Assembly (NCBI RefSeq): GCF_018977255.1
Contig: NW_024704793.1
Span: 186,001 to 250,000 of the forward strand
Direction of reading: 5' to 3'
DNA length: 64,000 nucleotides
Origin: Callorhinchus milii
Taxonomy: Eukaryota
Of the stretch, positions 18,391-58,636 are shown piece by piece; positions within the stretch are counted from its first letter, which is position 1, and every line of letters begins with the position of its first letter. The position numbers and the translations under genes were made by a program. Below the pieces are notes generated by a model. The model did no database searches, was not told the DNA's origin, and saw nothing but the letters and a program-made list of their open reading frames with translations.

Positions 18391-18764
18391 ATTCTTGGAA
18401 CCATGGAAAATAACCACAGTGACAGCCTGCGAGACTGTTTCTGTCTGAGATTTAATAAGAGGCAAAAATGTGGACTCTTCTTAAGCCGAGAATTGGACCC
18501 CGGGTTTGTGCTCTAATTAAATAATTGCCACAAGATCCTCACACTTCTGTTCAAATCCATTCAGTCCCTGTCACCTCCCTACCTCTGCGACCTCCTCATT
18601 CACAAATCTGCCACCCTGCGCTTCCGATCCAATGGACTCATTCCCGTCCCTCGCACTATTCGCCCCACCATCGGAGGTCGTGCATTCAGCCATTACGCTA
18701 CTAAACTCTGGAATATTGTACCTCAATCCTTCCGACTTGCACCCTCTCTCCAATGCTTCAAGTA

Positions 18765-23420: not shown

Positions 23421-26400
23421 TTATTTTCTGAACAGAATGCGTATTTGATAAAACGGGTATTTCACCATATTCTTCAGCTGTTTTCTGAATTTGGTTTGTG
23501 TCAAAGCATAAATACATGTGTTTGTAGAGCAGCTCAAAAGCCGAAGCATATTTCCAAACTGTAGTGCTATCGATGAGTTACCAGCATTATTAAAAGTCAC
23601 AAATAAAATTTCGAAATGAATATAACCTATCACATATGTCACCCATAAGCATATAAAACTCCCCGTTACTGTAAAGAGCAAAATGATGGATTTTCTACGA
23701 TTCTGCATCTCTGCATCTTTCTGATTTTCCCCGTTGCTGTGGCCTCGGAGCCTTCTCCGTGCAGCATTGGTCACTAAGATATATCTGATGGTCAGAACAT
23801 TGAGCAGCAAAATGAGAACAAATGGGATAAATGGCGTTAAAATGCATTGAAACAACGAAAAAGCGGTCCATAACCATGAAAAATAAAAAGTTCCTTTCAC
23901 AACACAAAACCAAGGTGTGTTTTTAATTATAAATAGCGGTTCAAGTTCGAGGTACCAGGGTATGTTGATCAAACAGCTGAACACACAGATCGCCACAATG
24001 ACCACAGTCGCTGTTTTCTCGGTGCAGTATTTGGTTTTCAGTTTCGGATGACAAATTGCTACAAATCGATCAAAGGTGAAAGCGATTGTGAGCCAAACAG
24101 AACAGGTGGTGGTTGCATGAAACAGCACCTCACGGATGCAACAGATAGGAGTCAGATTCAGGAAAATAAAACTCCACGAATAGATCTCTGCAAAGCGCTT
24201 CCATATCACATCAGTGATCACCACCAGCAGGTCTGCCACTGCCATGGCCACCAGGTATCGAGTGACACATGTGGAGAGACCGCACTTTCCTCGGGACAGG
24301 ATCACAATCGTCACCAAGTTAACTACAAGGAATAAATCATGAATAAACTCAGGTTTAGATTACGAAATTAAGGCCCTAGTTTCGATAATCAATGCTTCGA
24401 ATGGAGTTCAATAAGTTTACAAATAATTATCTTTCCAAATCATGCAGTACCTCATTGCGTTGCAGAGACGTTTTCAAGTGCTTCAGATAAGATGCTGTAA
24501 ATTTAACTGACTTTTGTGTGCTGTGGGTAAAAAGCGTCACAGTACTGTCGGGAATACAGTCGTGGATGGAATGAAATTTTACGGGATTATTCCATTCGGA
24601 AATTCAATACGACAATCAAATAACTACAGAGTTTCTACTTACTCTTTTGTGAACAGACATGTGTATCTAATATACATCGGTTTATAATACCGGTTTGCTA
24701 GAAATAATTTACAAAATAACATTAATAATGGATGATTTTGATTAGGTGATTTTGAGGTGCAACATTTAAAAACTTAGGTAACACATCTCCACCAGCTCGA
24801 GAATATTAAAAAACAGACAGTTCTCTTAATTTGTCGCTCGAGAGATAATTGAAGATGTTAGCTGGTAAAGCATGAGGCGTAAAATATAAAATATAAATAT
24901 AAGATAAGATAATTTCTTTGATATCTGTTGTTTTTACTGCTTTGAGCAATTTGTATGCAAGTTTTCCAACAACTCCACAACGTTCACTTCAAAAATAATA
25001 CTGTGATGCCGTTTTGAATGTCTCATTAATGTGGCAATGCGCAGTACGAGAAGCGTAAATTATAAAAAGCAGCGATTGATCACTGATAGTGATATCTACT
25101 TGGTATGTTATTTAAAATTTAGTCACTGTTTGTTCAGATTGCTAAATATCAACGATAGTTTCAAAAGTAGTTTGGATTGCCAAATAAAACTAGTTGATCG
25201 ATTCAATAATTCGTTGAAATACTTCCAACTTATCTTTTCAAAAGTAAAATTGAGTTTCGATTCCAACTTGTAATCTGCAGCCTGTGTACTCCCAACGCTA
25301 AATTCCACACCCCCATTCCACCTGTCCTGGTGAGGCTACACAGTTTCTCTACCAAAAGTGGATCGATTTCAAGATCCTCTCACTTGTCTTACAAGTACGT
25401 TCACCAACGGCGCCTCCCTACCTGAGGTGAGCAGAGAGGGAATGCAATCTATTGGGTGGTGAATTAAATCAAAGGACAAAGTGGGTTCAAGGAAAAAAAG
25501 AGGATCGAGTTTAACATCCCCGGACTAAACTTCAAATCCCACCATGGGGAAGCTTTTCAAACCTTACTATACCAACTGCACTGTCCTCACAGCGGACTCC
25601 AATCTGCAGCAGCTCCTATACTCCTCTCTGCCTAACAATTGGTCTTCGAGATCTAAGCTTATTTCCTTACTCTCTGGAACTTGGTGCCAGAGGCTCCAAG
25701 ATTGACCAGCTGCGGCCGTTTTCTTTCGACACACAGTTGTTGGGACCCTGAATAAACTCTCCTCCATTGCTGTTTGATGAGCAATGTTGATGGTTCCTCA
25801 CGACCTTCCTCTTTAATTTGCATTGAATTTAACAAAAGGCAGCCGTTGACAAATCAGTTGTATAGTTGTGCTTAGGAGAGAGGTGTAGATGGGATGAACG
25901 GTAACAGCACAAAGTTGAGATTGAGCAGATTCGTTTCCCAGGTGGCACGATACATTTGTCAAGTTTTCTTCCTCCACATGCCTATGTTTGCCGAGCAGTA
26001 AGTAGAAACTGCTGTGAGAGGATTGGTGATTAATTTTTCTGGTACTCATAATCGCTTCGAAACAAAAAAATGTTACTCGTCCCAAGTCTGTTTGTGTGAC
26101 ACTGCTGAGCAATTAGCTGCTGTGCTTCGCCGAAAAAATACGGAGTCAATTCAAATTAAAATATATTTTGTGAAGCGATGTGATTAATTGCCAATTGAAA
26201 TGCGAGGCTTATTTCTACCTGCCCTGTGTATCTTTCTGGAGGCTCTTGCCGTCATCCTCACTGTTCACTGCCATGAATTCATTCAGTTTGTTATTTATTG
26301 ATCAGATTCGGAATCATATAAATTATCCACGTATAATGGCTGACGCTCGTGTATAGGATCATTTCGTTTAAACTGAGATCCGAAATTTACTGACGAATTA

Positions 26401-29857: not shown

Positions 29858-31420
29858 GGAATCTCATAGAATCAAAGAATTATGCTCGACGAAGGAGGCT
29901 ATTCGGCCCACTGTGTCTGTGTCAGCTCTTTGAAAGGATATAACGAAACAATTCTCACAATCCCTCTCGCTCCATAGCGCTGCAAATTGTCCTCCCCATA
30001 AGTTATCTAATTATCCCTTCAAAGTGGTTATCGAATCGGTTTCCACCATTATTCCAAGCAATGCTTTCCGGATCCGAACAACTCGCTCTCTGAAACAATT
30101 TATCTTCAGCTCCCCTCTGCTTCTTTTAACCACTATTCTACATCGGTGACCTTGGATTACCGACACACACCACTCCACCCAACGACCCCCAAATATCTAC
30201 CCCCCACCCAGTGGTAACATTCTCTATTTGATCACCCTATCCAATCTCCTCATTGTACTGAAACATTATTTTAAGCCTCCTCTTATCTATCTCTGCTCCA
30301 AGAGAATATGCATAGTTTCTCAAGCCTCTCCTGATAACTCAATCGCTCATTCCTGGATTCATTCTGGAGAATCTCCTTTGCTTCCTATCCAATGCCTTGA
30401 CAATCTTCCTATCGTTGGTGCCCACAACTGAACACATTACTCTAGCTGAGGCCTGAGACCTGTATTTTATAAATATTCATCTTGCTTATTGAATGTTGTC
30501 TCTATTTATAAAGTATAGTATCCCGTATGCTTTTTACCAGCGTTATCAGCCTGTCCTGCTAACTTAAAAGATTTTCTTATATGAAACACCAGATATCTCT
30601 GTCCTTCACCCTCTTTCTGATTCCACGTTCCAGTTTATATAGTCGCTTTTCATTCTTGGTCACAAAATGCATCGTTTCGCATTTCTCCATATTAAACTTC
30701 ATCTGCCATGTGTCTGCCCATTTTGCCATTCTGTATGTGTCGTCTTATCGTCTAATGATAACCTCCTCATAGTCAACTACAACTCCTAGCTCAATATAAT
30801 CGTTGTGCTTGGAAATTGTATATCCAAGTCCAAATCATTTATATAAATTAAAAACAATAATGGTCCCAATGCTGACGCCTGGGGGATCCAATTGCACACT
30901 TCCCTCCACTCAGAAAAACAATCATCACGTCAAGTATCTTCTGTTGGTCTCCCAAGCAGATCTGAATCTATACTGTCACTGTCCCTCTAATAGCATAGAC
31001 CTCTAATTGGCCTACAAGTCTCTTATGCAGCACGTTGTAATGCGCCTTTTGAGAATCCATCTTCATCAACTGCATAAATTTCGTCCACAATGGCCGTTAC
31101 TTCATCAAAATATTCCATCAGGTTTGTTAGATATGATTTGCGCTCCACAGTTCGTGTTGGCAGTCATTTACTAACCCATATTTTTCGATGTGAAATTACA
31201 TTTTGTCCCGGATTATAGTTTCTAGAAATTTCACACGACTGACGTCAGATCTATAGTTGCCAGGTGTATGTTTTTGCCCCTTTTTCTACAGTGCAGGAAC
31301 AATTGCAACCCACCAGTCCTCTGGCACAAACTCAGTTTACAAAAGGGATTGACAAGTTGTCAGCAATGTCGCCAATATTTCCACTAATGCTTCTCTCAAT
31401 AAACAAGAATGCACCCCGTT
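29858..31420 (-). mobile_element. Decayed CR1 LINE fragment
   Basis: Reverse complement of WADTWQMKFNMEKCETMHF; catagaatcaaagaat tail. Confidence 0.8.
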
Positions 31421-31612
31421 GAATCACATTCTATTCTCGATAGATTCTGCCTGACCTGTTGAGTTTTTCGTGTTTTCTCAGTTATTGCTTTTAATTCTGG
31501 AGAGAATTGGGTTTAGCACGCCAAGGATCAGTAATTTTGGATCTAATTGTGTGTGTTTAGGTACTGTTGGATATTAACCAATTAATCAGAACTTGCTTGC
31601 AATAGAGAATAA

Positions 31613-32165
31613 TAAAACAAAAACAACAACAACAACAAGATTCCATTTATAACGCGCCTTTCACGTCAGGAGGACGTCCGAAGGCGCTGCACAGTAGGGT
31701 CATGACCCGAGCAGGGGTGAAATGGTCAGGGTGAGGGTAGGGAAGGGAGTGAGGGAGGAGGGGGAAGAATGTCGAACGCGGAGCTGAAGGCTCGGTCAAA
31801 GAGAAAGGTTTTGAGACCGGCCTTGAAGGAGGAGAGGGAGGAAGCAAAGCGTAGGCACTGGGGCATAGAGTTCCAGAGCCTAGGGTCTGAGAGGCTGAAG
31901 GCCCGACCACCGATGGAAGGGCGATTGGGGCGGGGGACGTGGAGCAGACCGGAGCCGGAGGAACGGAGAGTACGGGCAGGAAGGTAGGGGGATAGTAGGT
32001 CAGAGAGGTAGGAGGGAGCGAGGCCGTGGATGGCCTTATAGGTGAGGTTGAGGATCTTGAAATCAATCCTCTGGAGGATGGTGAGCCAGTGGAGGCGAGC
32101 GAGGGTGGTGTGATATGGCTGCGAAGCCTGGTGCGGGACAGTACACGAGCTGCAGAGTTCTGAAT
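31613..32165 (-). mobile_element. 5'-truncated L2 LINE 3' end
   Basis: LARLHWLTILQRIDFKILNLTYKAIHGLAPSYLSDLL...LKTFLFDRAF followed by the (AAC)n tail. Confidence 0.9.
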
Positions 32166-33429
32166 GATAATAATAGTCCTTGCATTTCGTTTGGCAACTT
32201 AACACAGCTTTCAGACGTTTTAATCCCCTTCACAAGCTGTACTTTACTGAATTGATTGTACATTTTGTAGGAGAAACACACATTTCCGATAACGATTTCC
32301 CTTCACTTCATACATGATGAAATAAATGGCTCTTTCAAATACAATACATAAAGATGTCAGGCTGCTCAGTGGCAACACTCTCGCCTCCGAGTCAGAAGTC
32401 AATAAGTTGACGCTCCAATTTGGGAAACTCCAGTGAAATGCTGGAATCCTGTCTCTCCCTCTGACTGTCGTGACTCTCTTTATCTCTGTCCCCAGATTTG
32501 TCTCTCTTTACTTATGTTTATGGCTACGCATCTGTGTGTATATTTGTCTATCTGTGTGCATGTTTCGCTGAGTCGCCCTGTGTTTCTCTCTCTACCTGTA
32601 TTATCTGAGTCTCTCACTGTGTGTATCTCTATGTCTGCATCGGCCGCTTGCTGTTGTCATTAGCAGCATGGAGTCATGTTCAAGAACAACAACTTAGACT
32701 AAATAGCGCCTTCCACGCAGGATGGCTTCTCGGACCACTTGAACTTGGCAATATCATTCTCGGGTCTCAGTGCCACACATCTGTACGAGACACAAACTCT
32801 CCATGGCAGCATCCATCCTGGACTCCAGGATCATTAATAATCCGGCTAATTGTCTGTCAGACATCAGGTTCTGTAGGAGAGCCAGCTTGCTACAACTGAA
32901 TGTTTGCAAGAAACAGCGACTCTCTTTGGCTCCCCTCAGCGCCTCCTGACCTCTGGCGCTGCCACTATCACTGTACACCTGACAGAGATAATAGTACATC
33001 TTGCTGTTCTGTTCCTTCTGAATCCACAAGGTTAAGATTTTAGTAAGAAGTGGCAAATGCTGTGACAGCAGAAATTCCACAGTATTCGTTGATTGTCATG
33101 AAATCAACTGAAAGAATACACCATTATGTCTGGCCATTGCCCATTCTCTCTCTCTGTAGATAAAGTTGTTGCGATTGTATTCCTGTCTACAGGTTGGTGC
33201 AGTTTCTCCAAATGCAGCTCTTGCTCTCTGGTGGAAATGTCAGTGTCTGATTATCAGTCGGATTTTTCCTGATTGCTTTACAAATTCGTTCCGTGAGTCG
33301 ACCCTGAATGTTGATTGTTTATGCCGCATCCAAAATTTCTGGCTGCTTAACCGTGACTATCACATTTGTCAATATCTGACCATTTGCCAAAATCTAAAAA
33401 TAAGACTTGCAAAACAACAGAGCAAAGCG

Positions 33430-35860
33430 CAATAATGGGGAATTATTTCTAAAATGCGTGGAGGACTACTTCATGATCAGTACGTTTCCAGCCCAACAAG
33501 GAAGGAAACAGTGCTAGATCTAGTTCTGGGGAATGAAGTAGGGCAAGTGGAGAAGGTATCATTTGGAGAGATGCTGTGTAGTAATGCTCATAGCATCATA
33601 AGATTGAGAGTGCATATGGAAAGACTAGGAACCATGTAAGTGAAGATATTGTACTCGAAAAGGGCAAATTTCAATGGTTCAAAAAGAGACCCAGCCATGG
33701 TGGACTGGAAAGAAGAATTGGCAGGGAAAACAACTAAAAAGCAGTGGGAAATTTTCAAGGATGTAATAGCTCGGGGATAGAATAAATAGATTCACACAAA
33801 ATGGAAAATTAGTTCTTCCGAACCTCCCTCGATGACAGAGGTATATTGTATCCAGAATGAAGCAGCAAAAGGAGGCGCATGACAAATGTCAATCCCAAGA
33901 TACAGAAGACAACCAAATACAATACAGGAAGTGCAGAAGAGGTTTGAGAAAGGAAATAAGAGGGGTTAGAAGATAATAAGAAAAACGTTTAGCGGTTAAC
34001 ATTGAAGGGAATTGTAAAATATATTGCAAACATATCAAGAAAAAAAGGCAAGTCAAAGGTCGTGTGGCGCCAATTAAGGACAAGGTGGAAATCTTATTGT
34101 GCAGGGCTGCCGTGCTGAATAAATACTTTGCATCTGCCTTCACAAAAGGAGTGGATGCACCAAATTTCGCAGTATCGGAGGAGAGGGTAGTGGAAATGGA
34201 TAAGATAAGTATAAGCAGAGAGGAATTATTGAAAAGGTTGACTGCGTTGTAGGTAGACAAGTCTACCTTTCCGGACGGGATGCAACCAAGATTTCTATGG
34301 GAGGAAAGCGTAAAATTAACGGAGGCGTTGACTGCAATTTTTCAATCTTCGTTGGACAAAGGAGTGGTGCCACCGGACTGCCGAGTGGCCAATATGCCTC
34401 TCCTGTATAAAAAAGGGACAGAAAGATAAACCTGGGAACTACAGGCCAGTGAGCCTGACATAAGTCGTTGTGAAATTCCTGGAGACTATAATCCGGGACA
34501 GAATAAATCTCACTGAGAAGTATATGGGTTAATTAGGGACAGCCAACATGGATTTGTTAAAGGCAAATCTTGATTTTCGATGAGGTAACGGATAGGGTGG
34601 TTAAAGGTAGTGCATTTGATGTAGTTTGTATGGTCATTCAAAAGGCATTTTACAAAGTGCCACATGAAAGAATTGTAAGAAAGTTAAAAGCCCATGGTAT
34701 ATAAGGAACAGTGGCTGCATGGATACAGAACTGACTGGTAGACAGAAAGCAGACGGTTTTGGTGAACGGCTGCCTTTCTGACTAGAGGGAAATGTACAGT
34801 GGGGTCCCCCAGTGATCGGTATTATGACTACTGCTCTTCTGAATGTACATAAATGATCTGGACTTGAATATAGCAAGTACCGTTTGCAAGTTTGCGGACG
34901 ACACAAATTTAGGTCGGGTAGCAAACAATGAGAAAGACAGCAGCCAACTGCAGGAAGTCATAAACAGAATGATAAAATGGGCAGACACGTGGCAGATGAA
35001 TTTCAATGTGGATAAATGCGAGGTAATGCATTTTGCAGACAGAATGAGGGGAGGCAATGTAGGCTAGGTAATACAATCTTAAGGGTGTAAAAGTACAGAG
35101 AGTTTTGTGGGTGCAGGCAAGTAAATCCTTGAAGGTGGCAGGACAGGTAGACAATGCTGTGTAAAGGGCAAATGAGATGGTAGGCTTCATAAATAGGGCA
35201 TAGATTACAAAAGTCAGCAGATTATTGTTAACCTGTATAAACAGTGGTTAGGCCTCAGTAAGAATACTGCGCCCAATTGTGGGCACCACACTATAGGAAT
35301 GATGCTTCGGCATTGGAAAGGGTGAAGAGAAGATTTACGAAGATCGTCCGCGAATGAGGGACCATGATTATGAGGAAAGGCTAGAGAGACTAGGATTTTT
35401 CTCATTATATCAGAGAAGGTTACGAGGACATCTAACAGAGGTCTTCAAAATAATCAGGGGATTTGTTTGGTTAGAAGGGGAAAAACTGTTTCCACTGGTG
35501 AGTGTGTCGGTGACTCGAGGTCATAGATTCAAAATGGTCTCTAAAAGAAGCTGAGGGGAGGTGAGATGAAATGTTTTCAAGCAGCGATTTGTTCGAATCT
35601 GGAACGCATTGCCTGAAAGAGTGGTCGAGGCCGATTCGATAACTACATTTTAAATGTGGTGGACGGGTATTTGAGGAGGACGGGTTTGCAGGGATATGTT
35701 GAAAATGATGGAGAGTGAGATTGACATTAATTGCTCTATTCGAAGAGCCGGCACATATACGATGGGCAGAATGGCCTACTTGTCTGCTGTACGAAGAGCC
35801 GGCACATATTCGATGGGCAGAAATGCCTCTTTTTCTGTTGTACGATTCTACGATTCTAAG
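33430..35860 (+). mobile_element. Decayed CR1-clade LINE (RT region and 3' UTR)
   Basis: LNKYFASAFT, YINDLD...CKFADDTNLG, KWADTWQMNFNVDKCEVMHF, QRRLRGHL; tail gattctacgattcta. Confidence 0.92.
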
Positions 35861-39125: not shown

Positions 39126-41754
39126 TTACTTAAGAAGTTTAAACATGTGTTTAAATGGATATATCACGAGATATTTTACATCCTCTCTGAATTTAGATTG
39201 TGACAAGGCATAAATGATGGTGTTTGTGCAGCAACTCAAGAGCTTAAGCATTTCGGTCACGTGGCGGACAACATATACTGGGTCTGTGTAATCTGTGTAG
39301 AAATAATTGTCTAAAGTTCGAGAAAGTATAAATTCTAAAACATACATCAGCCACAACAGGATGAAGCTGCCTGATATGGCGAAGAGTAAGATAATGGATC
39401 TCCTTCGATTCTCCATCTCTGGATCATTGCCACTTTCACTATTTTGGTTCAGGAGACTTCTGCGGATTCTGTTTGCCACTAAAATGTGTCTGACGGTCAC
39501 CACGTTCATCAGCAAAATCAGCAAGAAAGGAACAAATGGGGTTGTTATTGTTTCAAACCAGTGAAACACAATCCATGAGGGGGACGTGTGGTAAACTGTT
39601 TTGAACTTGCAATACCAAGGCACTTTTTTCACTATCTGTCTTGGCTCAAATATAAAGTACCAGGGAACAGCGATAAAACAGCTCAGAGAAGAAATCACTC
39701 CTACAACCACGGCTGCTGTCCTCTCGGTGCAATAACTGGTTTTCATTTTCACAAAACAGATGGCGACCATGCGATCAAATGTGAAAGCCACGGTGAACCA
39801 GACTGACATGTGGGTCACCGCTGTAATCAACAACATTCTGAGGGAACACAGGGGAGTGATGTCCAGAAATGTGTGAGGGAAATAAAGAGAATGGATTCGG
39901 TTGAAAATCACATCGTTGATGGCGACCAGGAAGTCACCCACTGCCATGGCCACCAGGTAGATGGTGATACATTTTGAGAGACCGCACTTTCCCCGGGACA
40001 GGACCACAATGGCCAACAGGTTCGCTGTAAAACAAAAGGAACATCAAACAGAAATATTTGCCAGTAAGCTGCGAAAGTTGATGAAATTTTGCTCGAACTG
40101 CTTTCACACAGCAGTTTCCCATGAACAACCACGGATTGAAGGGTCCAATTCTTTGACCATTTTATTCAACATATTCAAAATATTTTCAACGCTTTATTAA
40201 GCAATGCTTATCGAATCAAATCCAAGTATCTCGTTTGTCTGGCAAGGCCTCTAACCACTGAGCTACAGATATGATATAGCCATTGAACTACAGAGTAAAA
40301 AATACAAAGTTACATGTAAGATGTTAACCTTCATTCCGTGCCTGTTGCTGGTTCAGTTCGACATTATAGACCTCCTTTGACACTGCCAAGAAAGAGAAAG
40401 AACTTTCTCCAAGTTTCCTGACGAAGAATCCATCAAATTAAATTGGTAGCTCCATGTCTGTTGGCGGGACATTGCTTTGCCGTGTTTCGGCCACAAAATA
40501 AATTAAATCTCGACTTTACACTGTGAATCAGCGAATCAGTTTCAGACATCGCCATGATGTGAACGGTGCAACACGAAATGCAAGAATTATTATTTTTTAT
40601 CAACACGTTAAAACTTTAAGTCGGATACTGAAAAAAAGATCATTAAACTTCTCTCGTTAGAATTATATCACCCTGTTATAGGACCTGGGTCAAGTAAATG
40701 CATAGAATATAATTTGAAAGTTGTGGGTCATATTAATTTTAAATGTACGTTTCTTCAGATGCGATAATTACTCCGAATGTCAGCCTCCACTGATTTAGGA
40801 CGACCTTAAATATCACATTGTATTATTGTGAAAACAACAGACATCACCCACAACATAATTTAAAACGTCAAAATAAATGAAGGGATTTGAAGCACCAATA
40901 TTTGTCATCAAATTGCAAATAAACTCTATCATAATTATATGTTCCACGTAGCTATTGTATATTAAGAAAGACAGTTATGGCAATTCATGCGTTTATTAAA
41001 AGTAAGATATAATATATTTTAAAACAATTCAATCATAGCACTTATTGTCAGAGACCAACAATTTCGTGATTCTCCAATGGTTTTCTCCCTGGTCTCCCCC
41101 TCCATTCACAACAACCAACTGATTCAAAGCACTTCCACCATGTCCTTACTGCCACAATCTCCGGAATTCCACCACTCCAGTCCTCGCCAGGCTTCCCCTC
41201 CTCCTTTTCAGCAAACAAATCGCACCTGAAACACTGCAGCGATTGACAAGACCGCGGATGAGCGATCGGTGTGTTTGTTATCAGGATTGGACGCAGGCGG
41301 GCAATTTGGTAGAGGAGGGAAAAAATGGTTTCGTCATGGAAAGGACATGTGCTGGAAGGATCGCACTTGACTCCTCAGTTACTGATGGGTTTGGTGAGTC
41401 TGAGCGAGAGCTCCGGGAGGTTGGAAAGTTCCAACCCGCAGGAGGGAAGTGCGTTGACGGAGGCAAACTCTGTGGCTTCCGAATGCCGACATTCGGCGAC
41501 TGATAGTTTGCACTGATCCAAGCCTTGATATCCCTCAAAACATTGACAGGACATTAGCGGGCCAGGAGTCGAAGCTGGAGTCCGAAACCTAGAGTCGTAT
41601 GCCATTCAAAAATACGTGATACAACGGGGTATAAGTACAAGTGTAATTAATTACCAGTAATCCCAACAGTTGCCAACAGTGGATAGTAAACTAATATTGT
41701 CTGAAAAATTGTGGGCCAAAAGTGCAGTGGATAATCGCCTAAAGCTCGCAACAT
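39126..41754 (-). CDS. GPR139/GPR142-like class A orphan GPCR copy 2, intact, 332 aa (exons 41754-41655, 40024-39126)
   Basis: Exon 1 MLRALGDYPLHFWPTIFQTILVYYPLLATVGIT|gtaatt (gaccATG) in phase 1 to ttacag|CG AAC; FTFDRMVAIC, NTIIYALSQ; 999 nt in frame; TATAAA at 41831-41826. Confidence 0.92.
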
Positions 41755-43733
41755 GGTCTACGAACAGATTGGAGGCTGCCAGTGCTGGAAAGAGCATATC
41801 AGACTCACACTCAAAATTGCCAGCCTTTATATCCCAGAAGTTTCTCCACTGATTTGTGCAAATGACTGTAAGTAACATTAGTGTTCAGTTTCTGGCACGA
41901 ACTGCTGACTCGATTCCTTGGTGTTGGTAAGCAGGATCTCTTGGGGCTGAGCTAAATTTAAGCTGAAGTGTTCAGCAACAACAAGCTGGAATGCAATCAA
42001 ACCTGCGCAGTGGTCAGTGTCTGTGTCTGAGTTGTGCAGGTTGCTGGATGCCCTTAGTGCCTGTTTGAAGCTTGCAGCCTGTTGTTTCGAAGCTATGTCA
42101 CATTTATTGCTAAGTTATGCTGCTCACCATGAATGTGGTTGAGAGCGTAGGGTATCTGCTCTCCACCCAATGAGGGCTCAAAGGGTTTCTTTGATGCCAC
42201 ACCACAAACATCCAAGTCACTGCTGGTGTCATAATTGATCAAGTGAGTTCATCAGCCCACCTCTCACGAGGGTAGATGTTCTTCCTATCTTGTGTCTCTT
42301 TTCAATCCAACAATAAATATTATTTATGAGTTGGGTATTACTTGCTGGACAATCAGCAGGAAGCTTGCCAGATGTTCCTCTCAATGGCAAGCTTGCGGTT
42401 CTAAACTGGTTGAAGTCCAGCCGAGCTCAATCACACAACGTGTTTTGGTTCCTCTGCTAATAGGTATACTCGTTTGTCAGAGAAATGTCCAACCAAACAA
42501 CAGGTGATCCCCATGTAACAGTCACTAAAGTGGACCTCATCCCTGATGCTGCTCTTGTGCATCTTCTCTGCATCTATTCCAATGCCATATTGTTCCCTAT
42601 TATGAGGAAGTGCAAATCGATCATGTGGCTTCAGTTTCAATTTAATCAATGATAAAACACCTGCGCCATTCTCAGTTGACTTTGGTGCTGTATGGTTTTA
42701 AATATATAAATTTCAACACTGTCATGTTTCCCGCAAACACTTTGGACACCCAATATTGGGAAACAACTGCTCGCTGCCGCTTTCAGTTGATCAGTTGCTG
42801 CTCGTTACCAACTCATTTTGCTCCTCTGCGCCTCGCAGAATAATGTCCTTCAGTATATATTGCCCTTCCCTCTTCTTTTCTTGCGAGCTATTGGGATTAT
42901 TCCAGTGATCACCACCATATTGAGTTTCAATATGGACCATGTATTTTCCACTCATGAAACGGATATAGAATTGTAATGAAGGCACGACTGCCAATGCAAA
43001 AGCACAACGCATTTTACTGTCACATTGCAGCTTTACATATCATGCAATCATCATCTTAAATCAGGTATAACAGCAATTGACCCGCATTGCAAACTGCCAT
43101 GAAGTAGCCGTCACAAACTCGATGGGCAGAATATCCTCCTTTTTCGCTGTACAATTCTATGATTCTGTGAAACTAATTCCACAGATTTTCGAAGCGGATT
43201 TATCGTATCAGAAATTCCACAGTTACAGTCATTCGCTGACATAAACATCGAACTTCCAATAATCTTTTCATTTTATTTAGCGCCTTGAGAAGTGTTGAGT
43301 GAATGAGGGAGCGACATAAAGGGAATTTGTTGTCGTTGTGAACCCGCCCACCTATCACCACTTATATTTATACAACGAGGGGAATATTAAATACCTCTCA
43401 ACACAAAAATCATGTTCACTTATGTTAACAGAGTCAGTAAATCTTTAACAAATTCCGGGTTGAAATGTTGCAGTAAACCTGGGCTGCCAAATTTTCAAGA
43501 TATTTTGTGGATGGGTTTGTGCGGGTGTGAGGAGGGAACGAGGGTGTGGTTGGGGTGGAAATGAACTTGATGGGGTTTCCCAAACCCGGAAAAAAACAGT
43601 TTGAAAAATAAAGGACTGAATGCCAAGGGGAAGGGGAGAAATTCACAAACTGAAGTACCACTGTGAAACACTGATAGAAACCATTTGCGATAAGAAGGCT
43701 TGTGCAGCACAGGCAGAGTATATGAAGCTCTTA

Positions 43734-43844
43734 TTAGGTATTCTGAAGATCTGCGTAGAGAACGTTTTGACTGTCATTCCATGTTCTTGGTGGTGCTTGG
43801 CTCAAAGCGTTCAGGTTAATCGAAGCGTAAACAAGGGGAATGTC
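43734..43844 (-). CDS. Terminal exon with two ITIMs
   Basis: ctctgaacag|DIPLVYASINLNALSQAPPRTWNDSQNVLYADLQNT*; LVYASI and VLYADL match (I/V/L/S)xYxx(L/V/I). Confidence 0.85.
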   Translation of the reverse strand, partial: DIPLVYASINLNALSQAPPRTWNDSQNVLYADLQNT

Positions 43845-44919: not shown

Positions 44920-45560
44920 AGGTGTGAAATGGAGACGGATTGAGAATTGGGTGAGTCAGGAGTTGGATTGCGGTTTAGGGCGGAGATGGGCAGATAATTG
45001 GGTGAGTCAGTGAATGGTTTGATGTGTGAGAGGGAGATGGATAGAGATATGGGGCATTCAGGGGTTTGATTAATATGTCAGATGGAGATTTGTGAAGGTA
45101 TTGTGGAGACAGGGATGTATAGAGACTTGGGGTGTCAGGGAAATATTTAGGTCAAATGTGAGATAGATAGGTACTTGGGGGACTCAGGGAAGGATGTGGC
45201 TCTAAATGTAAGATAGATAGATACTTCCGGGAGTCAGGGAAGGATTTAGGTCTAAATGGGAGAAGGAGAGAAGTGTGGGTGTCAGGTAAGGATTTCGGTC
45301 TTAATGGAGATACCGAAATACTTGGGGGTTCAGGGAAGGAGCTACCTCTAAATGGAAGATAGAGAGATACTTAGGGATTCAGGGGATAGACTGTGGTGTG
45401 AAAGGGAAATGGATGGAGGCTTGGAATGGCGGTGTGAAAGGATGGATTGAGGTGTCAGTTGGAGATGGGTAGAGACTTGGGGGTATCAGGGAATGGATTT
45501 AATTAAGTAAGATTGGAGAAATACGGAGATGTCCGAGATGAATGGATTTGAAACACGTGT
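44920..45560. repeat. Inverted (GA-rich) block of the same about 50-bp minisatellite
   Basis: gggagatggatagagatatgggg and ggagatgggtagagacttggggg are the reverse complement of the 47-55 kb monomer. Confidence 0.8.
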
Positions 45561-45574
45561 GAAGATCTTCAAAC

Positions 45575-46475
45575 CGTTGATTCCATGTGTGTCAGACACT
45601 CGGCTGATCACGGTGACGCGTTACAGTGTGTTTCGGTGTGTCAGACACCCGGCTGTACAGATTGACAGGATTCCGTGTGTGTCAGACACCTGGCTGATCA
45701 AAGTGAATCATTATTATGGTGTATGTCAGATAACCAGCTGATCAGGGTGATGTGTTTCCGTGTGTGTGTGCGTGTGTCAGATCCGGTTGATTACAGTTGT
45801 AGGTAAGAAACAGTGGCGCCTATCGAGCATTGGTGTGATGTGCAGTACGGGGATTGGTTTGTGATAGGGAGCAATTGGAGCCTTCGGAGGATTGATATGA
45901 TGGGGAAGCAGAGTTTAGTGCACATGATGTGGAGCCAGTGGAGCCTGGCGTGGACTGCTCAGAAGGGGTTTTAGAGTGTAGAGTGTGAAAGGCAGCCAGT
46001 GGAGATCTGCGTGGTCTGGTATGAAGGGGTACGGTGTGTAGTGTTTATAATAGGGCGCCAGCGGAGCCCAGTGAGTTCTGCGGTGATGGGAGTTCAGTGC
46101 GGGAGATTGTGAAGTGGTTGGAGGAATGTGTGAAGAGGATTTTATGGATGGCAGTGCTGATGAGACCAGCGAGGAGGATACTGGAATTTGGAAGTGTCTC
46201 AATGATCTTACCGGACTGTTACCCTGTCCGGATGAGCTGTCAGCGCCGCCTGTCAACAAAATAGATATATGGTGCATTAGTCAATGGGAATCCATCTTCT
46301 GAAACATTCCGCTGCTCAATTTTCAATAGCGTCAAAATTTGGGCGTTATTTTCCACTGTGTGTGTGTCAGAAACCCGATTGATAACAGTGACGGGTTTCG
46401 CTGTGTGTCAGTTACCTTGATGATCATGGTAACGGGTTTCAGTGTTTGCGTGTGTGCGTATGTGTGCACGTGTGT

Positions 46476-46635: not shown

Positions 46636-46740
46636 CTTGTTTCTTGAATACCACGAAGTAAAGGACGGTAGACAATGTTGTGATCAATAGAATACAGCCG
46701 ATTATCACTGGTAAAATTATCTTCATCTGTGTGGGTTTTT
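46636..46740 (-). CDS. Transmembrane exon of the IgSF receptor
   Basis: EKPTQMKIILPVIIGCILLITTLSTVLYFVVFKKQ, 105 nt, donor AAG|gtatct; uncharged TM followed by KK; the acceptor (ttttttgggag) is atypical. Confidence 0.8.
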
Positions 46741-47129: not shown

Positions 47130-50100
47130 ATGACACACAAACAGGCATACACACACGCAGACACAAGCAAAAACGCACACTTACACTCAAACACACACAC
47201 AAATACACAATTACTCGCTTACACACGCAAGCCCCTCCCGCCCCACACAGATCCATACACAAACACTTTCACACTCATACTTGCATATACGCAGACACAC
47301 TGAATCCTCAACAGCTCAAGCCGTCTCACTCTCACATCTCAATTAATCTCCTGACTCCCCTGAAATCTCTGTCCATCTCCTTTTCGCAATTCTATTAAAC
47401 CCCTGACTCCGCAACGTGTCCATCCATCTCCTTCTACTACCTCAATCATTCACTGAAAGCATACGTCTCTATCCATTTCCCTCTTGCTATTCAGTCTATA
47501 AATTATGTTTTTTATTAATACATTAACGCCTAATTCTGTGGATATTCCCTTTGTAGTTGGATGAGTGGTTGTGATATCCACAAGTATTAAATTGAAAAGT
47601 TTTCCAATCGTTGATCACAGCACTATGCTCCAAATCAATGGATAGGCTCCTTGTTCTCCACTGCTAACTAAATCTCAATCTGCAACGTCTCACAACTCAA
47701 GCCGTCTCCTCATTCCTCAAGACTGTATCCATCTTCCTCTCACACATTCGTTCATCTCCTGATACACTCACATGTCTATCCATAGCCTTCTCGCAACTGA
47801 ATCCACCCCCAGACAACCCCAGTTCTCTATCCATCTCCCTCTTGCAACTTAATACATTCCCTGACTTCCAAGAATCAATCAGTCTCCCCCATGATCTTCA
47901 ATCTATTAAGTAGTACCATTAATCTTAATAATGCATCATTATTCTTAATAATTATATCGTTATTCAGTATCAGTATTCTTAATAATGATATCTGGCCTCT
48001 TGAGTCTTAGCTCATTCGTTTTGTCTTTGGAGGAAACGTTGAGTTATCTAAAAAATAAATTGAAAGCTTGTTGAATTCCAGTCACCTCAATGGATTCCCC
48101 ATCTCCTCAAGTCTCTATTTGTCTTCTTCTCCCACCTGACTCCATGCCATGACTCCCCTAAAATGCTATCGATCGTCTTCTTCCACTTCAATCAATCACC
48201 TGGCTCCTCCAATCCTCTAGCCATCTCCCATGTACACGTTTATCCTTCCACTGAAACACCAACATCTCACTCCAATCTCCCACTCTTACGTGAATCCATC
48301 ACCTGGATCCTCGAAATCTCTATCCGTCTCCCTCTTACACTTCAATTCATACCCTGATTTCTGCAAGTCTCTATCCACCTCCATATCGCAAATGAATCAA
48401 TCCCCTGGGTCCTCAACGTATATATTCAACTCCCTCTTGTACCTCAAACATCCCCCGCTAACACAGGGCTCTATCCATATTCCTCCTGTACATCAATCTA
48501 TCCATTATTGGCAATAGTATCTACCTAGTTATTCTATGTTCATACAGGTTGTATTTTGGTGAATAGTTGAGATAGCTAAAAACATTTTTTAAAGATTTAA
48601 CATTAGTTCAACAGTTGATAATCGCAGGATGCTCTAACAAAATGGATAAGCCTCGCTGCTCTCCCCTGCTAAGGCAGTCTCAATCGGAAACCTCTCCAAA
48701 CTCAATTGATCCACTACATCCTCAATGCACTGTCCATTTCCCACTCACAACTCAATCCGTCCCCTAATTCCCCCACGTCTCTATCCATCTCCCACTCACA
48801 CCTCATTCAATCTTGACTTCACCATGTCTCTATCCATCTACCTATCAAACGGTAATCGATCCTTGACTCCCAAGTCAATTCACGTGTCTCGAGCACCGCA
48901 ATCCACCCGACGACTCACCGAAGTCTCAGTTATTCTCCATCTTGCAACGCAAACCATCCTCTGACTTCCTCAAATTTTTATCCATCTCCACCTTGCACTT
49001 CAGTTCGTACGCTGACTTCCACAAGCTATACTCACATACATCTCGCAAAACAATCAAACGCTTGAATCCCCTAAGCGTCTATTAATCTCCGTCTTGTATT
49101 TCAGACGCCGCATGAACACACAAGTATCTATCCATCTCACTCTTGCACATCAAACTATTATCTATTTTTATTATCTTACGTTTTGAACCTATGCTCATCC
49201 AGTTTGTTGATCGGGGAATGTTTGAGGTCGCCAAGTATGTTTTTATTGAAAAGAAATGACTCACAAACAGACATACAAAACAAACAGACACACCGCACAG
49301 ACACACTCTTGCACATTCTCACACACACGAACACACACTTACACGCGCAAGCCCCCCCACCACACAGCGACATTCGCACTCACACTTACATAGTCACACA
49401 CACTACTCACCAGCTCAAGCCATATCCCTCTCACAACTCAACTGATCTCCTGACTCCCCCAAATCTCGATCCATCTGCTTCTCTCAACTCAATCAAACCC
49501 CTGACTCCCCCATCTCTCTACCCGTCTCCCTATTGTAACTCAATCATTCATTGAAAATACAACTCTCTATACATCTCCCTCTCGCACCTCAGTCTGTCAA
49601 TGTTTTTTATCATTAATACTATAAAATTTGATTCTGTGCTCATTCCCTTTTTTATTTAGGGGAACGGTTGAGTTAACCGACAGAATTAAATTGTCCAACC
49701 GTTGATCACAGCACGTCGCTCTAAAATAATGAATTAGGCTCTTTGTTTACCACTGCTAACTAACTTTCCGTCTTCAGCGTCTCACATCTCAAACCATCCC
49801 TTAACTCTTCAAGACTCTATCCATCTCCCTCTCACACATTCATTCATCCCCTGACATATCTTCATTTCCATCCATATCCTTCTCGCAACTCAATCTGTCC
49901 CCTGACATCCCCAAGTTTCTTTCCATCTCACTCTTACAACTTTACCCAACCTCTGACTCACCAACATCTCAATCCATTTCCCACTCATACGTCATACGCC
50001 TGATTCTCTAAATCCCTATCCATCTTCCTCTTCCAACTCAATTCATACCCTGACGTCAGCAAGTCTCTATCCACTTTCCTCTCGTAACTGAATCATTCCG

Positions 50101-53100
50101 GTGAGTCCGGCAAGCATCCATCCATCTCTCTAATGCACCTCAAACATCCACTGCTTACACAAGGCTCTAACCGTATTATACCTCTTTAATCTTTCAGTTA
50201 CTGATATCATGAATATCTTACCAACTGAGCCTGTGCACATACTTGTTTTTGGGGCATAGATGAGATAGCAACAAAAATTAAATCGAAACGTTGTTCAATA
50301 GTTGATCATCGCAGTACGTTCTAGAAAAAATGTATTAGCCTCGCTGCTCTCCCCTGCTAAGTCAATCTCAATCGGCAAACTCTCCCAGTTCAATAAATCC
50401 CAAAAATCCACAATTCGCTGTCCATTTTCCACTCGCAACTCAATCCATCGCCTAATTCCTCCACATCTCTATCCATCTCCCTCTCACACCTCAATCAATA
50501 CCCTAACTTCTGTATCCAGCGCCCTCTCACACGACAATCCATTCTCTGACTCCGAGAAATATATATTGTCCTCTCTCTAGCAACGCAATCCATCCGATGT
50601 CTCACCGAAGTATCAATTCATCTCCATCTTGCAACTTAAACCATCCACTGTCTCCATCAATTCGATATCCATCTCCCTCTTGCACTTGCATAACTCTATT
50701 TATATCAATCTCGCAAAATTGTCAATCGCCTGTCGCACTAAGCGTCTATCAATGTCCCTCTTTTATCTCAGTCGTCGCCTAACAACACAAGCCTCTATCC
50801 ACCTCCCTCCTGCATAACAACTGTTAAATATTTTTATTATTCATATTTCACTTTTTATGTTTGTGCTCATCCACGATGTAGATGGGTGAATGGTGGAAAT
50901 AGCTTAAAAAGCGTAAATTTTAAAGTTGTTCAAACGTTGATGAGAGCACGGGTCTCTGAAACAATGGAACAGTCTCGCGGCTCTCTACTGCTTACTCAAT
51001 CTCCATATGCAAACTCTCCCACTTAAATCCAGCCCCTAATTCCTCAAGTCTCTATCCATCTCCCTCTCACACTTCAACCCATCCCTTGATTCGAGTATTT
51101 CCTATCCATCTCCCACATGCACGTCAATCCATCCATGACTCTTCATATTTGCCTATCTATCTCCGTCATAAAAATGAATCCATCCACATGACTCCTCAAA
51201 TCTATATCTATCACCCCGTCACACCTATTCCATCGCAAAAGACCGTGAAATCTATATCCATCTCGCTATGGCACGTCAGTCAATCCCCTGACTCCACCAA
51301 ATCTCTGGTTATCGACTTCTCGCATTTTAATGCATCCCCTGACTCCCCCAGATGTCTATTTGTTTCCTTCTCGCACATTAATCTATCCTCTAACTCAATC
51401 TGGCTCTGTCCACCACTGTGTTGCAACTTCTTCCATGCCCAAGTGTCTGTCCATCTTCCTCTTTAACCTCATTCCATTCTCTGACTCACCCTTTTCTCTA
51501 TCCATATCCATATTGCACCTCAATAGATCCAGTAATTGAAAATCTATATCCATAATAATCTCACACTTTACTCCATCGCCTGACTGCACAACATTAAATC
51601 CACCTGCCCTCAATCAATCCGCTGACTCCTTACACCTCAAGCAATCCGCTGCCTCGCCCTCATGACTATCTATATCCCATTCGCAAGTTTATCCATCCCC
51701 TGATCCCTCAAATCTCTATCCATTGGTTTGTCGCAACTCAAACGATTTCCCGTATCCCCAAGTCTCTATCCATCTGCATCTTACACCTCCATTCATCCTC
51801 CGACACACTCACGTCTCTATCCATCTCCTTCTTGCACTTCAATCCATATCCTGAATTCTGCAAGTTTCTATCCATAACCATCATTAAAAATCACCTAACG
51901 CCATCCATCTTCCTCTTGTACCTCAATGCATTGTGTGACTGCAAAAATCTCCAGGAGTTCCCTTTTGCAACTGAATCTATTAATTATTGCCCTCATTAAT
52001 ATTTTACATATTGAGTCCGTACTCATATATTTGCAGGTGGGGGAATGCTTGCGATATCTAAAAAAAGTAAATTGAAATGTTGTAGAATCGTTATTCATAA
52101 CAAGATGATCGAAAACTATGGATGATCTCCACTGCTAACTCAATCTGAGTCTGCAGTCTCCCCCACCTCAATGGATCCCCTAACACTTCAATTCTCTATC
52201 CATCATCCTCTCACACCACAGTCTATCACCTGATCCCCCACATATCTATCCTTATCCCTGTCACCTCATCCATCTACTGACTTCCGCAAATCTTTGTCCA
52301 TCTCCATCTCACATGCCATGCCATCCCTTGACTTCCAAGAGTTTCTGTTTAACACTCCTTAACAGCTCAATACATTCAATGCTCTCCGAAGTCTCAATCT
52401 ATCTACCTCTTGACCATGAATCCACCCCCTGTCCCTCAAGTCTCTATCCATTTCCCTCTTGCACTTCAATCCACACACTGATTTCCACTATTCTCTGTCC
52501 ACCTACATCTAGAAACTCAATCATTCCGCTGACAAATCGAAATCTCCATCCATCTGCGTCGTGCAACTCAATTCGTTAAATAATGTTGTTCTTAATATCT
52601 TACCACTTGTGCCATTGCTCATCTCCTTTGAAGTTGGGAGTATGGTTGAGATAGCTAAAAAAAACAAAAATGCATATTTGTTCAATTCTCAATGATAGAA
52701 GGTGCTCTAAAACAATGGATCAGACTCCCTGCTCTCCACTGATTTCTCAATCTCAATCGGCAATCTCTCCCACCTCAATCGATCCCAAACTCGGCAAGTC
52801 TCTCTCCATCTCCCTCTCACACCTCAATGGATCCGCTAATTACCACGCATCTCTATCCAACTCCATCTCACCACTCAATCAATCTTCTGACATCCCCTCT
52901 TAATTATCGATCTCCCTCTAACACCACAGTCTCTCTTCTCACGCCCAAGTCTGCCTTTTAAGCTCTACCTACCACCACAATCAATCACATGGCTCCCGGA
53001 ATTATCAATCCATCTCCCACTTGCACACCAATCCATCCACTGTCACCATCTGCCAGCCACTTGTACGTCAGTGCATTCCCCGATTCCCCAAATTGGTTAT

Positions 53101-54960
53101 TCATTTCAGTCTTACACTTCAATCTATCCAATGACTCCTGAAATCATCTCCATCTCACACGTCAATCTATCACCTGACTCAACAAGTCAATTTTCATTTT
53201 CCTATTACATTTCCATCCATCTTCTCACTCCCCGAAATCTCTATCCAACTGATTATTGCAAGTCTATACTTCCCTCAATTCCCGAATCTGTATCCATCTA
53301 CAGATTTCATAACTTAATCTGTCACCTCATTCTAGAAAGCCTCTAGGTGCCACTTCCTCACACTCATTCCATTGCTTGGCTCCCCCAAGCCTTTATCCAA
53401 CTCCGCCTGCAGCTCAATCCATCCCGACACCACAAAGTATTTCTCTTCACCTGACACCTCAATAGTTGCCCTGACTGCCTAAGTCTCAATCCGTCTAACT
53501 CTGCACCACAGTAAGTCCCCTGACTCCCAGATGTTTCCAGCCATCTCTCACACCACAATCCTTGGGACAGCTTATATTCACTTCCCTCCAGCACCGCAAT
53601 CCATCCTTTGACTTGCCGAAGTCTTATTCCATTACCCTCTTGCACTTCAATCCATCCGCTGACTCCGGTAATTCTATATCTGTCTCCCTCTTGCCCTTGA
53701 ATCCATATCCAACTTCCGCAAATCTCTATCCACTTCCATCTCGAAACACAATCAATCCCCTGAATCCAGAAAGTAATTCCGCTGTCTCACCCAAATCTCT
53801 ATCCATCTCATTCGTGCACCGCAATCTATTAGTTAGTGTTATTGTTAATCGGTTACCTCTTGTTCCTTTGCTCGTCTCCTTTGAAGTTGAGTGTATGGTT
53901 GGCATAGCTAAAAAAAGAAAAATTGCACAGTGTTCAATTGTTAATGATTGCCGATGCTCCAAAAAGATGGAGCCTCTCTGCTCTCCACTGATAACTCAAT
54001 CTCAATCTGCAAGCTCTCCAATCTCAAACGATCCCCAAACTCCTAAACTCTATCCAGCTCCCTCTCACATCTCAATCGATCCCCTAATTTCCCGCAATCT
54101 CTATCCATCTCCATCTCGAAACAAAATTAATCCACTGAATCCTCTTAACAACTATCAATCTCCCTCTTTTACTTCAGACACCAGTTGAATGATCAAGTCT
54201 GCATCCGTCTCCGTCTTGCTCATCAATCCATTAGAACATTGTATTACCAATCTCTTATCTTTTGCGTCTGTGGTTATCCGTATTGTAGATGGGGAAATGG
54301 TTGAGGGAGCTAAAAAATTAAATTGAAAAGAAGTTCAGTCGTAGATAATAGCACAATGATCTGAAACAATGCATCAGCCAGCTGCTTTCCACAGCTTACT
54401 CAATCCCCATTTGCAACCTCATCCACTTCAATCTCGTTGGTAACTCTTCAAGTCTCTATCCATTTCCCAGTGGCACATCAATTCACCCACTGGTTCCCGC
54501 ACATTTCTGTCCATCTCTCTCTCACAGCCCAATCCATCCCTGAATCCAAAAAATTCTCTATCCATCTCCATCTTTCGCCTCAATCCATCCCTAAATTCCC
54601 ATGTTTATATCCATCTCTGTCTCACATCTTAGTACACCCACTGACTCTGAAAAGTCTCTACCCATTTCACTTTCACACATTCATCCATTCCCTCTCTCCC
54701 AAATATCTCATCCCATCTCCTGCTCACACCTTAATCAATCAACTGAGTCACCCAAAAGAACATCCACCTAACTCTTAAACTTCACGACTTTCCCATGAAC
54801 CTGCAAGACTCTATCCATCTCCCTCTCGCAGTTTATCGAAAATCCTCTGACTGGACATGGCTGTCCACCTCCCATTTACACTTCCATCTATCGCATGATT
54901 ACACATGTCTTCATTTGCATTTGTTCATCACTTAAGTACTCAAATTCTTTATCTATCTTC
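47130..54960. repeat. Composite minisatellite: about 50-bp CT-rich monomer arrays separating the stalk-exon modules
   Basis: Approximate consensus TCAATCCATCCCCTGACTCCCCAAGTCTCTATCCATCTCCCTCTCACACC; for example gtctctatccatct recurs at 51762 and 51813. Confidence 0.85.
47527..54309 (-). other. Array of 11 duplicated, mostly 51-nt, Ser/Thr/Pro-rich stalk exons (3 intact, 8 degenerate)
   Basis: Copies at 54309-54259, 53907-53857, 52654-52604, 52057-52008, 50902-50852, 50268-50222, 49676-49625, 49230-49180, 48575-48525, 48047-47997, 47577-47527; consensus tttttttag|CTATCTCAACCAT...ATGAGCACAGACTCAAGTG|gtaagata. Confidence 0.8.
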
Positions 54961-55567: not shown

Positions 55568-55876
55568 CTGATCGAACCGTCACGTAAATTTCCTGGAAGG
55601 AATGGGTGAGACCTTTTATCTTGAAAGTATAACGATATGATCCAGAATCTTTGAGTTCAAGTTTGCTGATGTTTAAGCTTCTAAAATCCAGAGAGTGACG
55701 ACTGTCAGCGAAAATCAGATTGCCATCATGTGTCCACTGTACCTCAATTTCATCCGAACTAATTGTGCCGTCTCCATGAAATGTGGGTTTGGTGTTAAAA
55801 TAACCAGGGTGTGAGATTTGACATGTGAGAGCCAGCCGTCCACCTGCGGTCAGAGAGATCTCAGTAGACACAGACA
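55568..55876 (-). CDS. Second Ig domain exon (C2/I-type), F-strand Cys replaced by Tyr
   Basis: GGRLALTCQI...VQWTHDG...SLNISKLELKDSGSYRYTF...IYVTVRS; 309 nt, phase 1-1, ctgcag| and |gtaagt. Confidence 0.85.
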
Positions 55877-56289: not shown

Positions 56290-56644
56290 GGTGAAACACT
56301 ATCAGATGGACGATGCATGTATACGCAATTTTTTCTTCTTTTTTTATAAACAATGCACTGTTACTCGCCAGCCAGACTCATTGTGGGTGTGAGTAACAGG
56401 GAGAGATCCCCTGACTGGAAAGCGTTGGAATCAGCCACTGATATGTCCTTATCATGAGTGTCGTCACACGCAGAGCTGTCTTCAGTTATCTCACACAAGT
56501 TTAGTTCTTCCTTCCCTGAGATGGAGTACCAATACCATTTAGCGGATTTGTTTTCCCTCCCAGCGTCAGGTGAGCAAGGCAGTAAGGCAGAGCTGAAGCC
56601 GTTAGACACCACATAACTCTCGCTCTCATCACTTCTCATAGAGA
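56290..56644 (-). pseudogene. IgV-domain exon with a premature stop and a frameshift
   Basis: SALLPCSP...AKWYW...FQSGDLSLLLTPTMSLAGE*QCIV; TAA sits where Tyr of the GxYxC motif is expected; 355 nt, and removing one base from the A-run restores ...KIAYTCIVHLIVFH|gtaagt in phase 1. Confidence 0.85.
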
Positions 56645-58542: not shown

Positions 58543-58636
58543 CTGAAGTCAGGAGACAGAGAGGCAGGAACATCCAGCAGAATGATATGACGGAGTGACT
58601 GAGCTCAGCTCTGGGCACGACACGGCCTCTGTCCAT
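58543..58636 (-). CDS. Signal-peptide exon of the IgSF receptor
   Basis: MDRGRVVPRAELSHSVISFCWMFLPLCLLTS, ends CAG|gtacgt in phase 1; acceptor (ct)n-cag before 58713. Confidence 0.75.

Follow-up and report, generated by a model that had tools for sequence, protein, structure and literature searches.

A mostly broken tandem array of likely stalk exons in a probable inhibitory receptor pseudogene of Callorhinchus milii

A 64,000-nucleotide (nt) stretch of the Callorhinchus milii genome (contig NW_024704793.1, positions 186,001 to 250,000; hereafter the window, with coordinates counted from its first letter) carries on its minus strand, between 47.5 and 54.4 kb, an array of 11 tandem modules, 8 broken and 3 intact, that probably represent copies of a 17-residue stalk exon rich in Ser and Thr, within a predicted inhibitory receptor gene with two immunoglobulin (Ig) domains that is itself likely a recent pseudogene. 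The best reading of the array is a birth-and-death fossil of a stalk exon, not an accordion now moving. A profile built from three modules and run over the 64-kb window finds exactly 11 copies (E 1e-53 to 8e-7) and, outside the array, only four weak matches (E 0.9–7.4), in agreement with an earlier note made from the letters alone, which had described 11 duplicated minus-strand modules with about 51 nt between AG and GT-like sites; the six translations quoted there were all reproduced. Each module spans ~170–185 bp: a T-rich tract leads to an AG-like acceptor, and ~51 nt further on stands a GTAAG-like donor. Neighbouring modules of the window array lie 402–1253 bp apart. The exon is symmetric (phase 1-1), compatible with the flanking second Ig exon (Ig2, 309 nt) and transmembrane (TM) exon (105 nt) between which the earlier note had placed it, and the 336 residues encoded by 51-nt copies across the family contain 36% Ser+Thr and 44% Ser+Thr+Pro.

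Taking AG, 51 nt, freedom from stops and GT together as the criterion, three of the 11 modules are intact, the same three as had been named before (in the ranges that follow, the higher coordinate is the exon start on the minus strand): module 2 (53857..53907) and module 3 (52604..52654), both of 51 nt and both included in P0002, the database prediction for the window gene, and module 5 (50852..50902; 51 nt), which is absent from P0002 and only nominally intact given its weak sites (AAG acceptor, A/GTGAAA donor). The other eight are damaged as described earlier. Six have lost a splice site: module 1 (54259..54309; 51 nt, donor GT>AT), module 6 (50222..50268; 47 nt, no acceptor), module 7 (49625..49676; 52 nt, neither site), module 8 (49180..49230; 51 nt, no acceptor, situated at a block-duplication junction with GT-rich DNA now forming its upstream flank), module 10 (47997..48047; 51 nt, a stop, a GC donor and a truncated upstream flank) and module 11 (47527..47577; 51 nt, neither site). 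Two retain both sites: module 4 (52008..52057; 50 nt) has a frameshift and a stop, and module 9 (48525..48575; 51 nt) a stop in frame. The lengths of 47, 50 and 52 nt, found once each, are all frame-breaking. As a control, the bare pattern of a pyrimidine tract, AG, 51 nt and GT was searched on the minus strand and gave 10 matches, 7 of them outside the array, and the same pattern at other lengths from 39 to 69 nt gave 1–12 matches per length; since the bare pattern is this frequent by chance, it is not by itself the basis of the exon reading, which draws on homology, position and conservation. Tandem Repeats Finder did not report the module array in the window, only three short spacer pieces.

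The host gene reads as a receptor with a V-type Ig domain, Ig2, a TM segment and two motifs of the immunoreceptor tyrosine-based inhibitory motif (ITIM) type. Its minus-strand exons comprise a leader (signal-peptide) exon (58543..58636), which is open with a phase-1 donor and has a homologous exon upstream of the paralogs; the V exon (56290..56644); Ig2 (55568..55876), which is of phase 1-1, open and matches the I-set domain (E 2.6e-5); the TM exon (46636..46740), which is open, lacks a charged residue and has a weak GAG acceptor; a first cytoplasmic exon of 38 nt and phase 1-0 (46212..46249); and a last cytoplasmic exon (43731..43844), conserved in paralogs, that encodes LVYASI and VLYADL before its stop. 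The ITIM consensus is (I/L/V/S)xYxx(I/L/V). An uncharged TM segment with two ITIM-type motifs is common to the window gene, the paralog on contig C1098 and the LVYAS-type exon of paralogs, and the ITIM exon has a ratio of non-synonymous to synonymous substitution (dN/dS) of ~0.3 against paralogs. The reading frame from leader to tail is interrupted in the V exon alone, by two lesions. A substitution has created a TAA (56363-56361) in place of the Tyr of the G-x-Y-x-C motif, a Tyr present in all eight aligned homologs, and the exon length of 355 nt (1 mod 3) reflects a frameshift within two A-runs near the 3' end. The frameshift may be a sequence error because it lies in A-runs and is absent from P0002. 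The V-exon state and the ITIM tail had gone unmentioned in the earlier note. The absence of the second, F-strand Cys from Ig2 (Y-x-Y) was considered as a further lesion and ruled out, this trait being common to paralogs and shark homologs. The V-exon stop and frameshift suggest that the window gene likely became a pseudogene recently. Outside the V exon and modules, all 645 coding nt are open, which has a probability of ~1e-3 under neutral decay since the paralog split in a simple simulation using the divergence and indel rates of the paralog comparison; the gene would thus have outlived most of its modules, with the V lesion late.

An alternative that we consider unlikely is that the gene is alive, either as a V-less one-Ig ITIM receptor produced by skipping of the V exon or as a null haplotype among working alleles, with modules 2 and 3 (and 1 or 5) serving as live cassettes. 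Skipping the V exon preserves the frame, as the leader ends in phase 1 and Ig2 is of phase 1-1, so that a living V-less isoform or working alleles can be envisaged; every other exon is open with AG/GT ends, and the ITIM exon has the low dN/dS given above. P0002 matches the window exactly in Ig2, TM and modules 2-3 and lacks the V frameshift, but 4 of the 17 residues of its module 1 differ; this hints at a second, divergent haplotype, although a different copy could also account for it. A genome pattern search for the P0002-type module 1 gave no match and is uninformative. Against a living gene, P0002 starts directly past the position of the V-exon stop, as would be expected if its source carries the stop too, the TM acceptor is the weak GAG, the window modules are unconstrained, and recent death accounts for the same signals.

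Searches with V and Ig2, together with annotation of the retrieved genomic stretches, identified 12 loci of the receptor family including the window: four on contig C52, four on C71, and one each on C1098, C205, C361 (the same as C205) and C1510. They hold 11, 6, 4, 4, 4, 2, 1, 1, 1, 0, 0 and 0 modules, with two further copies at the edge of C784, and modules lie between the Ig2 and TM exons at every locus having both. Of the 19 modules found outside the window once C361 is excluded, 10 are intact. The family includes at least three TM/tail types and several broken members, and its named records in databases come from Callorhinchus milii. On C71, adjacent paralogs (1.5-10k and 13.4-19k) have Ig exons ~96% similar and differing TM and tail exons, one tail with ITIM-like motifs and the other without, as in paired receptors, and both lack the module acceptor. 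Six copies of the ITIM exon occur with no V or Ig2 exon in their retrieved flanks (C52:108.6k, 372.5k and 404.1k; C316:77k; C63:206k; C1647:0.7k), several of them without one tyrosine. C205, C361 and C784 carry one broken paralog in near-identical copies on three small contigs, which may be haplotigs or recent segmental duplicates.

That the module might be a non-coding piece of satellite, or an exonisation of satellite sequence that only mimics an exon, is suggested by the shared length of 51 of exon and satellite, by the frequency of the loose AG-51-GT pattern by chance and by a weak exon–satellite alignment (p<0.03 in 6 of 18 uncorrected permutation tests), but half-exon tests were not significant in 11 of 12 cases. 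We did not adopt a satellite origin of the exon, the signal in the uncorrected permutation tests being weak. A genome DNA search with module plus spacer, which scores only the best candidates, returned 57 matches. Of these, 18 cover the module core and stay with the Ig family, 17 of them at Ig-gene loci and the remaining one at the edge of contig C784, whereas the 39 spacer-only matches include many unrelated contigs; among the best candidates scored, the module is therefore not a dispersed repeat unlinked to Ig genes, the alternative that the earlier note had named as refuting its own reading. The conservation of splice sites and frame in paralogs, and the presence in sharks of a 17-residue unit at the same position, likewise argue against satellite mimicry, which we regard as highly improbable. 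The modules are instead supported as duplicated symmetric Ser/Thr-rich stalk exons.

Conservation was scored against the commonest letter of each alignment column. The four C361 modules (identical to those of C205) and the two C784 modules were left out of the module table, identity and dN/dS calculations and tree, and the 19 non-window modules were thinned to 11 to lower relatedness. Splice dinucleotides match in 63 of 70 cases in the non-window copies. In the thinned paralog set the match is 39 of 42 (p=0.001; intron background 0.72), exon bases score 0.81 against 0.72 for flanking intron (p=7e-4), and 7 of 11 copies are intact where 1.9 would be expected if neutral (p=0.001). Paralog length variants that keep both sites (48 and 45 nt) preserve the frame, and dN/dS is 0.45 for six intact non-window 51-nt copies. 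The window copies show neutral-looking decay with no sign of constraint: splice bases match in 36 of 44 (p=0.12), the exon scores 0.75 against 0.73 for intron (p=0.39), dN/dS is 1.23 (bootstrap 0.69-2.29), and 3 of 11 are intact against ~2 expected neutrally. Modules are spliced in by two database predictions, P0002 for the window gene (modules 1-3) and P0003 for the paralog C71d (its one module).

The spacers between the modules (47300..54950, minus strand) are made up of a purine-rich minisatellite with a period of 51 bp (23+28), degenerate in sequence and present on unrelated contigs as well. The minisatellite introns proposed in the earlier note are thus present as a tandem 51-bp repeat, although degenerate and not homogeneous: 16 spacer units of exact length have a mean identity of 63% (maximum 84%), whereas a young array of this repeat, located on C1247 within the introns of an unrelated gene, reaches 93% matches. 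On that contig (1-1480), two short exon-like pieces are surrounded by introns full of the repeat in opposite orientations, and one piece reads TVYSVV, of ITIM type; C1247 may possibly hold another inhibitory receptor gene with the same intronic repeat. An inverted patch of the spacer minisatellite also lies at window 44930-45500, in the intron between the two cytoplasmic exons, and C1098 has one at the matching place.

The largest rearrangement in the array is a tandem block duplication (47167..50897, minus strand), in which 50897-49295 (modules 5–7 plus a GT-rich flank) matches 49225-47167 (modules 8, 9 and 11 plus flank) at 77%; in agreement, the tree pairs 50268 with 48575 and 49676 with 47577. 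The two exon copies that begin at 53907 and 52654, modules 2 and 3, are related by another duplication, both ends of which fall inside the minisatellite. An active accordion, in which minisatellite introns drive ongoing unequal crossover so that module number varies between individuals and tunes receptor height, would draw on this duplication, on the tandem nature of the spacers, on the varying module counts of paralogs and on near-identical units in the manta Mobula, which show that recent expansion occurs in the family. We consider it very unlikely at this locus. The closest window modules are 75% identical (median 61%), the closest larger units (660 nt) 76-79%, and the spacers are as degenerate as described. 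The junction of the largest duplication, where the GT-rich flank beside the acceptor meets module 8, lies outside the minisatellite, so that minisatellite-driven crossover fits the duplication of modules 2 and 3 but not the block. Homogenisation is also absent from the C1098 modules (maximum 76% identity), some of which pair in the tree with modules of another gene, indicating that parts of the arrays predate gene duplications. Duplicated units overall are 74-79% identical, similar to the 76-78% of paralog introns. The array is old, and because its copies are at most 75% identical and have decayed at a neutral rate, the window gene bears no sign of an active accordion; with a V-exon stop and frameshift and 3 of 11 modules intact where ~2 are expected, the working accordion that the earlier note envisaged is not supported here.

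Stalk tuning in 17-residue steps by copy number or splicing, which the earlier note had also proposed, is not supported for the window gene but is supported at the level of the family by predicted shark and ray proteins. With P0001 as query, a full-library search gave 40 matches; names were obtained for 20 of these and for 3 from a further search. Two-Ig homologs with paired tail tyrosine motifs occur in Pristiophorus, Heptranchias, Heterodontus, Mustelus, Pristis, Mobula and Hypanus. In Heptranchias, the annotated isoforms P0061 and P0058 differ by exactly one 17-residue stalk unit, and P0007 and P0043 by exactly one of 18 residues. In Heterodontus a 17-residue unit is found in one gene and not in its paralog, the Mobula protein P0010 has five 17-residue units, four of them identical, and Hypanus P0012 has 15-residue units.

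Several observations weigh against reading the array as decayed stalk exons of a dead receptor gene. If the V frameshift is a sequence error, the pseudogene call depends mainly on one TAA. Over all 12 non-window 51-nt copies dN/dS is 0.83, with an interval (0.42-1.41) that includes 1, and the module copies share ancestry, so that the p values given above are optimistic. Splicing of the chimaera modules is a prediction: database models are the source of P0002 and P0003, as of the shark isoforms, P0002 is a poor model that extends into a neighbouring G-protein-coupled receptor (GPCR) gene, and P0001, predicted for another paralog, skips both its modules. The shark and ray units come from protein annotation, and they match in position and length with a complexity too low to show sequence homology. 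A single origin of the 11 window copies is compatible with the tree but not demonstrated by it (p-AU 0.23).

The history that we propose starts from what the data show: one 51-nt phase 1-1 module lies between Ig2 and TM family-wide, in 0–11 copies per gene, and the module and its flanking intron were duplicated in tandem, singly or as a three-module block, at a time about as old as the paralog split, to judge from the similar identities of units (74-79%) and paralog introns (76-78%). Extra copies would have been tolerated because the exon is symmetric, and most would then have been silenced while the gene worked, 6 of the 8 by loss of a splice site. The length of a putatively O-glycosylated stalk, which differs between paralogs and isoforms, may be set by how many copies are usable and by their skipping; at 0.25 nm per mucin residue each copy would add ~4 nm. 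The V-exon lesions would have come late. A bolder proposal, which we put forward tentatively and think less likely to be true than false, is that an undescribed LAG-3/G6f-related paired-receptor family of cartilaginous fishes sets its height in 17-residue steps by one ancient cassette exon that predates the chimaera–shark split. Sharks would skip or include this exon, chimaera (11-fold) and manta (5-fold) would each have amplified it on their own, loss of splice sites would have pruned it, and working alleles with several modules, or a V-less isoform, of the window gene itself would persist in the population.

The neighbours of the host gene in the window are 7tm_1 GPCR genes, and two single-exon rhodopsin-family GPCR genes, 65% alike in DNA, lie on the minus strand at 39129-40043 and 23424-24359. 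Segments 70-85% alike are tandemly repeated on the plus strand at 8300-14900; one open frame there resembles what we take to be an NLR-type leucine-rich-repeat exon, and the one open reading frame tested had no match in Pfam. The regions 18700-21700 and 30000-35600 presumably contain broken reverse-transcriptase fragments resembling long interspersed elements and many copies resembling short interspersed elements; here too, Pfam gave no match for the one open reading frame tested.

Tuning of a stalk by small O-glycosylated exons is already known from CD46 and CD45. New here is a readable record of stalk evolution, in which one symmetric exon appears to have multiplied to as many as 11 copies, most of which fell silent within a gene that was still alive. 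The receptor family, present in chimaera, sharks and rays and labelled 'uncharacterized' in databases, combines a LAG-3-like head with two ITIMs and is relevant to the early evolution of inhibitory immune receptors. Size-based models of signalling could be tested with paralogs and isoforms that carry the same head on 0 to 5 stalk units, with the direct payoff limited in that the window gene is probably dead. If the proposal of a family built in 17-residue steps is true, it would supply a natural series for testing selection on inhibitory-receptor height.

The family itself is apparently undescribed, in that neither it nor the array was found in the accessible main text of the literature searched; the supplement to the elephant shark genome paper (PMC3964593) may list such genes. 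Single exons compared with PDB sequences gave a best E of only 0.0045, and the ESM Atlas offered generic V-set leads only (CD200R1-like, TACT, VSIG4, TIGIT; scores 0.91-0.92). A model of a shark homolog (mean predicted local distance difference test score 70, Ig region mostly >80) gave in a PDB fold search LAG-3 D1-D2 at ranks one to seven (E 1.4e-13, 22% identity) and CD4 D1-D2 with the best TM-score, suggesting a V-C2 pair of the same fold and a predicted receptor head nearest LAG-3/CD4 D1-D2. The best named non-chondrichthyan relatives, among named matches, include the 'g6f-like' proteins of bowfin, gar and bichir (E 1e-7 to 3e-4), and a profile–profile match with G6f-like covers both Ig domains (hhalign probability 99.1%, E 1.4e-18, 22% identity). 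Tails of the CD4/LAG-3 family carry Cx(C/H) or (F/Y)xxL(D/E) motifs (PMC10768021), whereas the window tail reads YASIN and YADLQ with no Cys motif, and the chondrichthyan family is multigene, with pseudogenes, several tail types and a mucin-like stalk. G6fL of ray-finned fish is described as having four Ig domains and an ITAM (immunoreceptor tyrosine-based activation motif; PMC3528668), in contrast to the two Ig domains and ITIM-type or other tails seen here. We therefore do not class the family as CD4/LAG-3 or as G6fL, since their tail motifs, and the four domains and ITAM, are absent from it. The fish clusters NILT, DICP and NITR resemble it in their clustered inhibitory and other forms and frequent pseudogenes, and also vary in gene content (accessible text of bioRxiv 2022.04.21.489081 and 2021.06.11.448072); those portions of the two accounts describe no tandem stalk-exon array, and none of the three names occurs among the 23 named matches of the homolog searches.

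With respect to the stalk, two systems are the closest. The variable exons A/B/C of CD45 are symmetric O-glycosylated cassettes that change ectodomain height, located at the N-terminal tip of a phosphatase and regulated by cell state, whereas the chimaera module lies under the Ig domains of an ITIM receptor and varies mainly between paralogs. In CD46 (MCP), short membrane-proximal segments rich in Ser, Thr and Pro are alternatively spliced (including a 15-residue segment) and alter the O-glycosylated stalk (PMC2118878). The likeness to CD46 lies in a short Ser/Thr/Pro-rich unit between ectodomain and TM, in its symmetric phase and in splice sites that are conserved in the paralog copies (those of the window copies not above background), and may extend to alternative inclusion, which annotated shark isoforms and predictions suggest. 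CD46 differs in its complement-control domains, in the small number of such exons and in having its splicing proven; the chimaera array underlies a V-plus-Ig2 head with a 17-residue unit in up to 11 copies, mostly dead, whose splicing is predicted.

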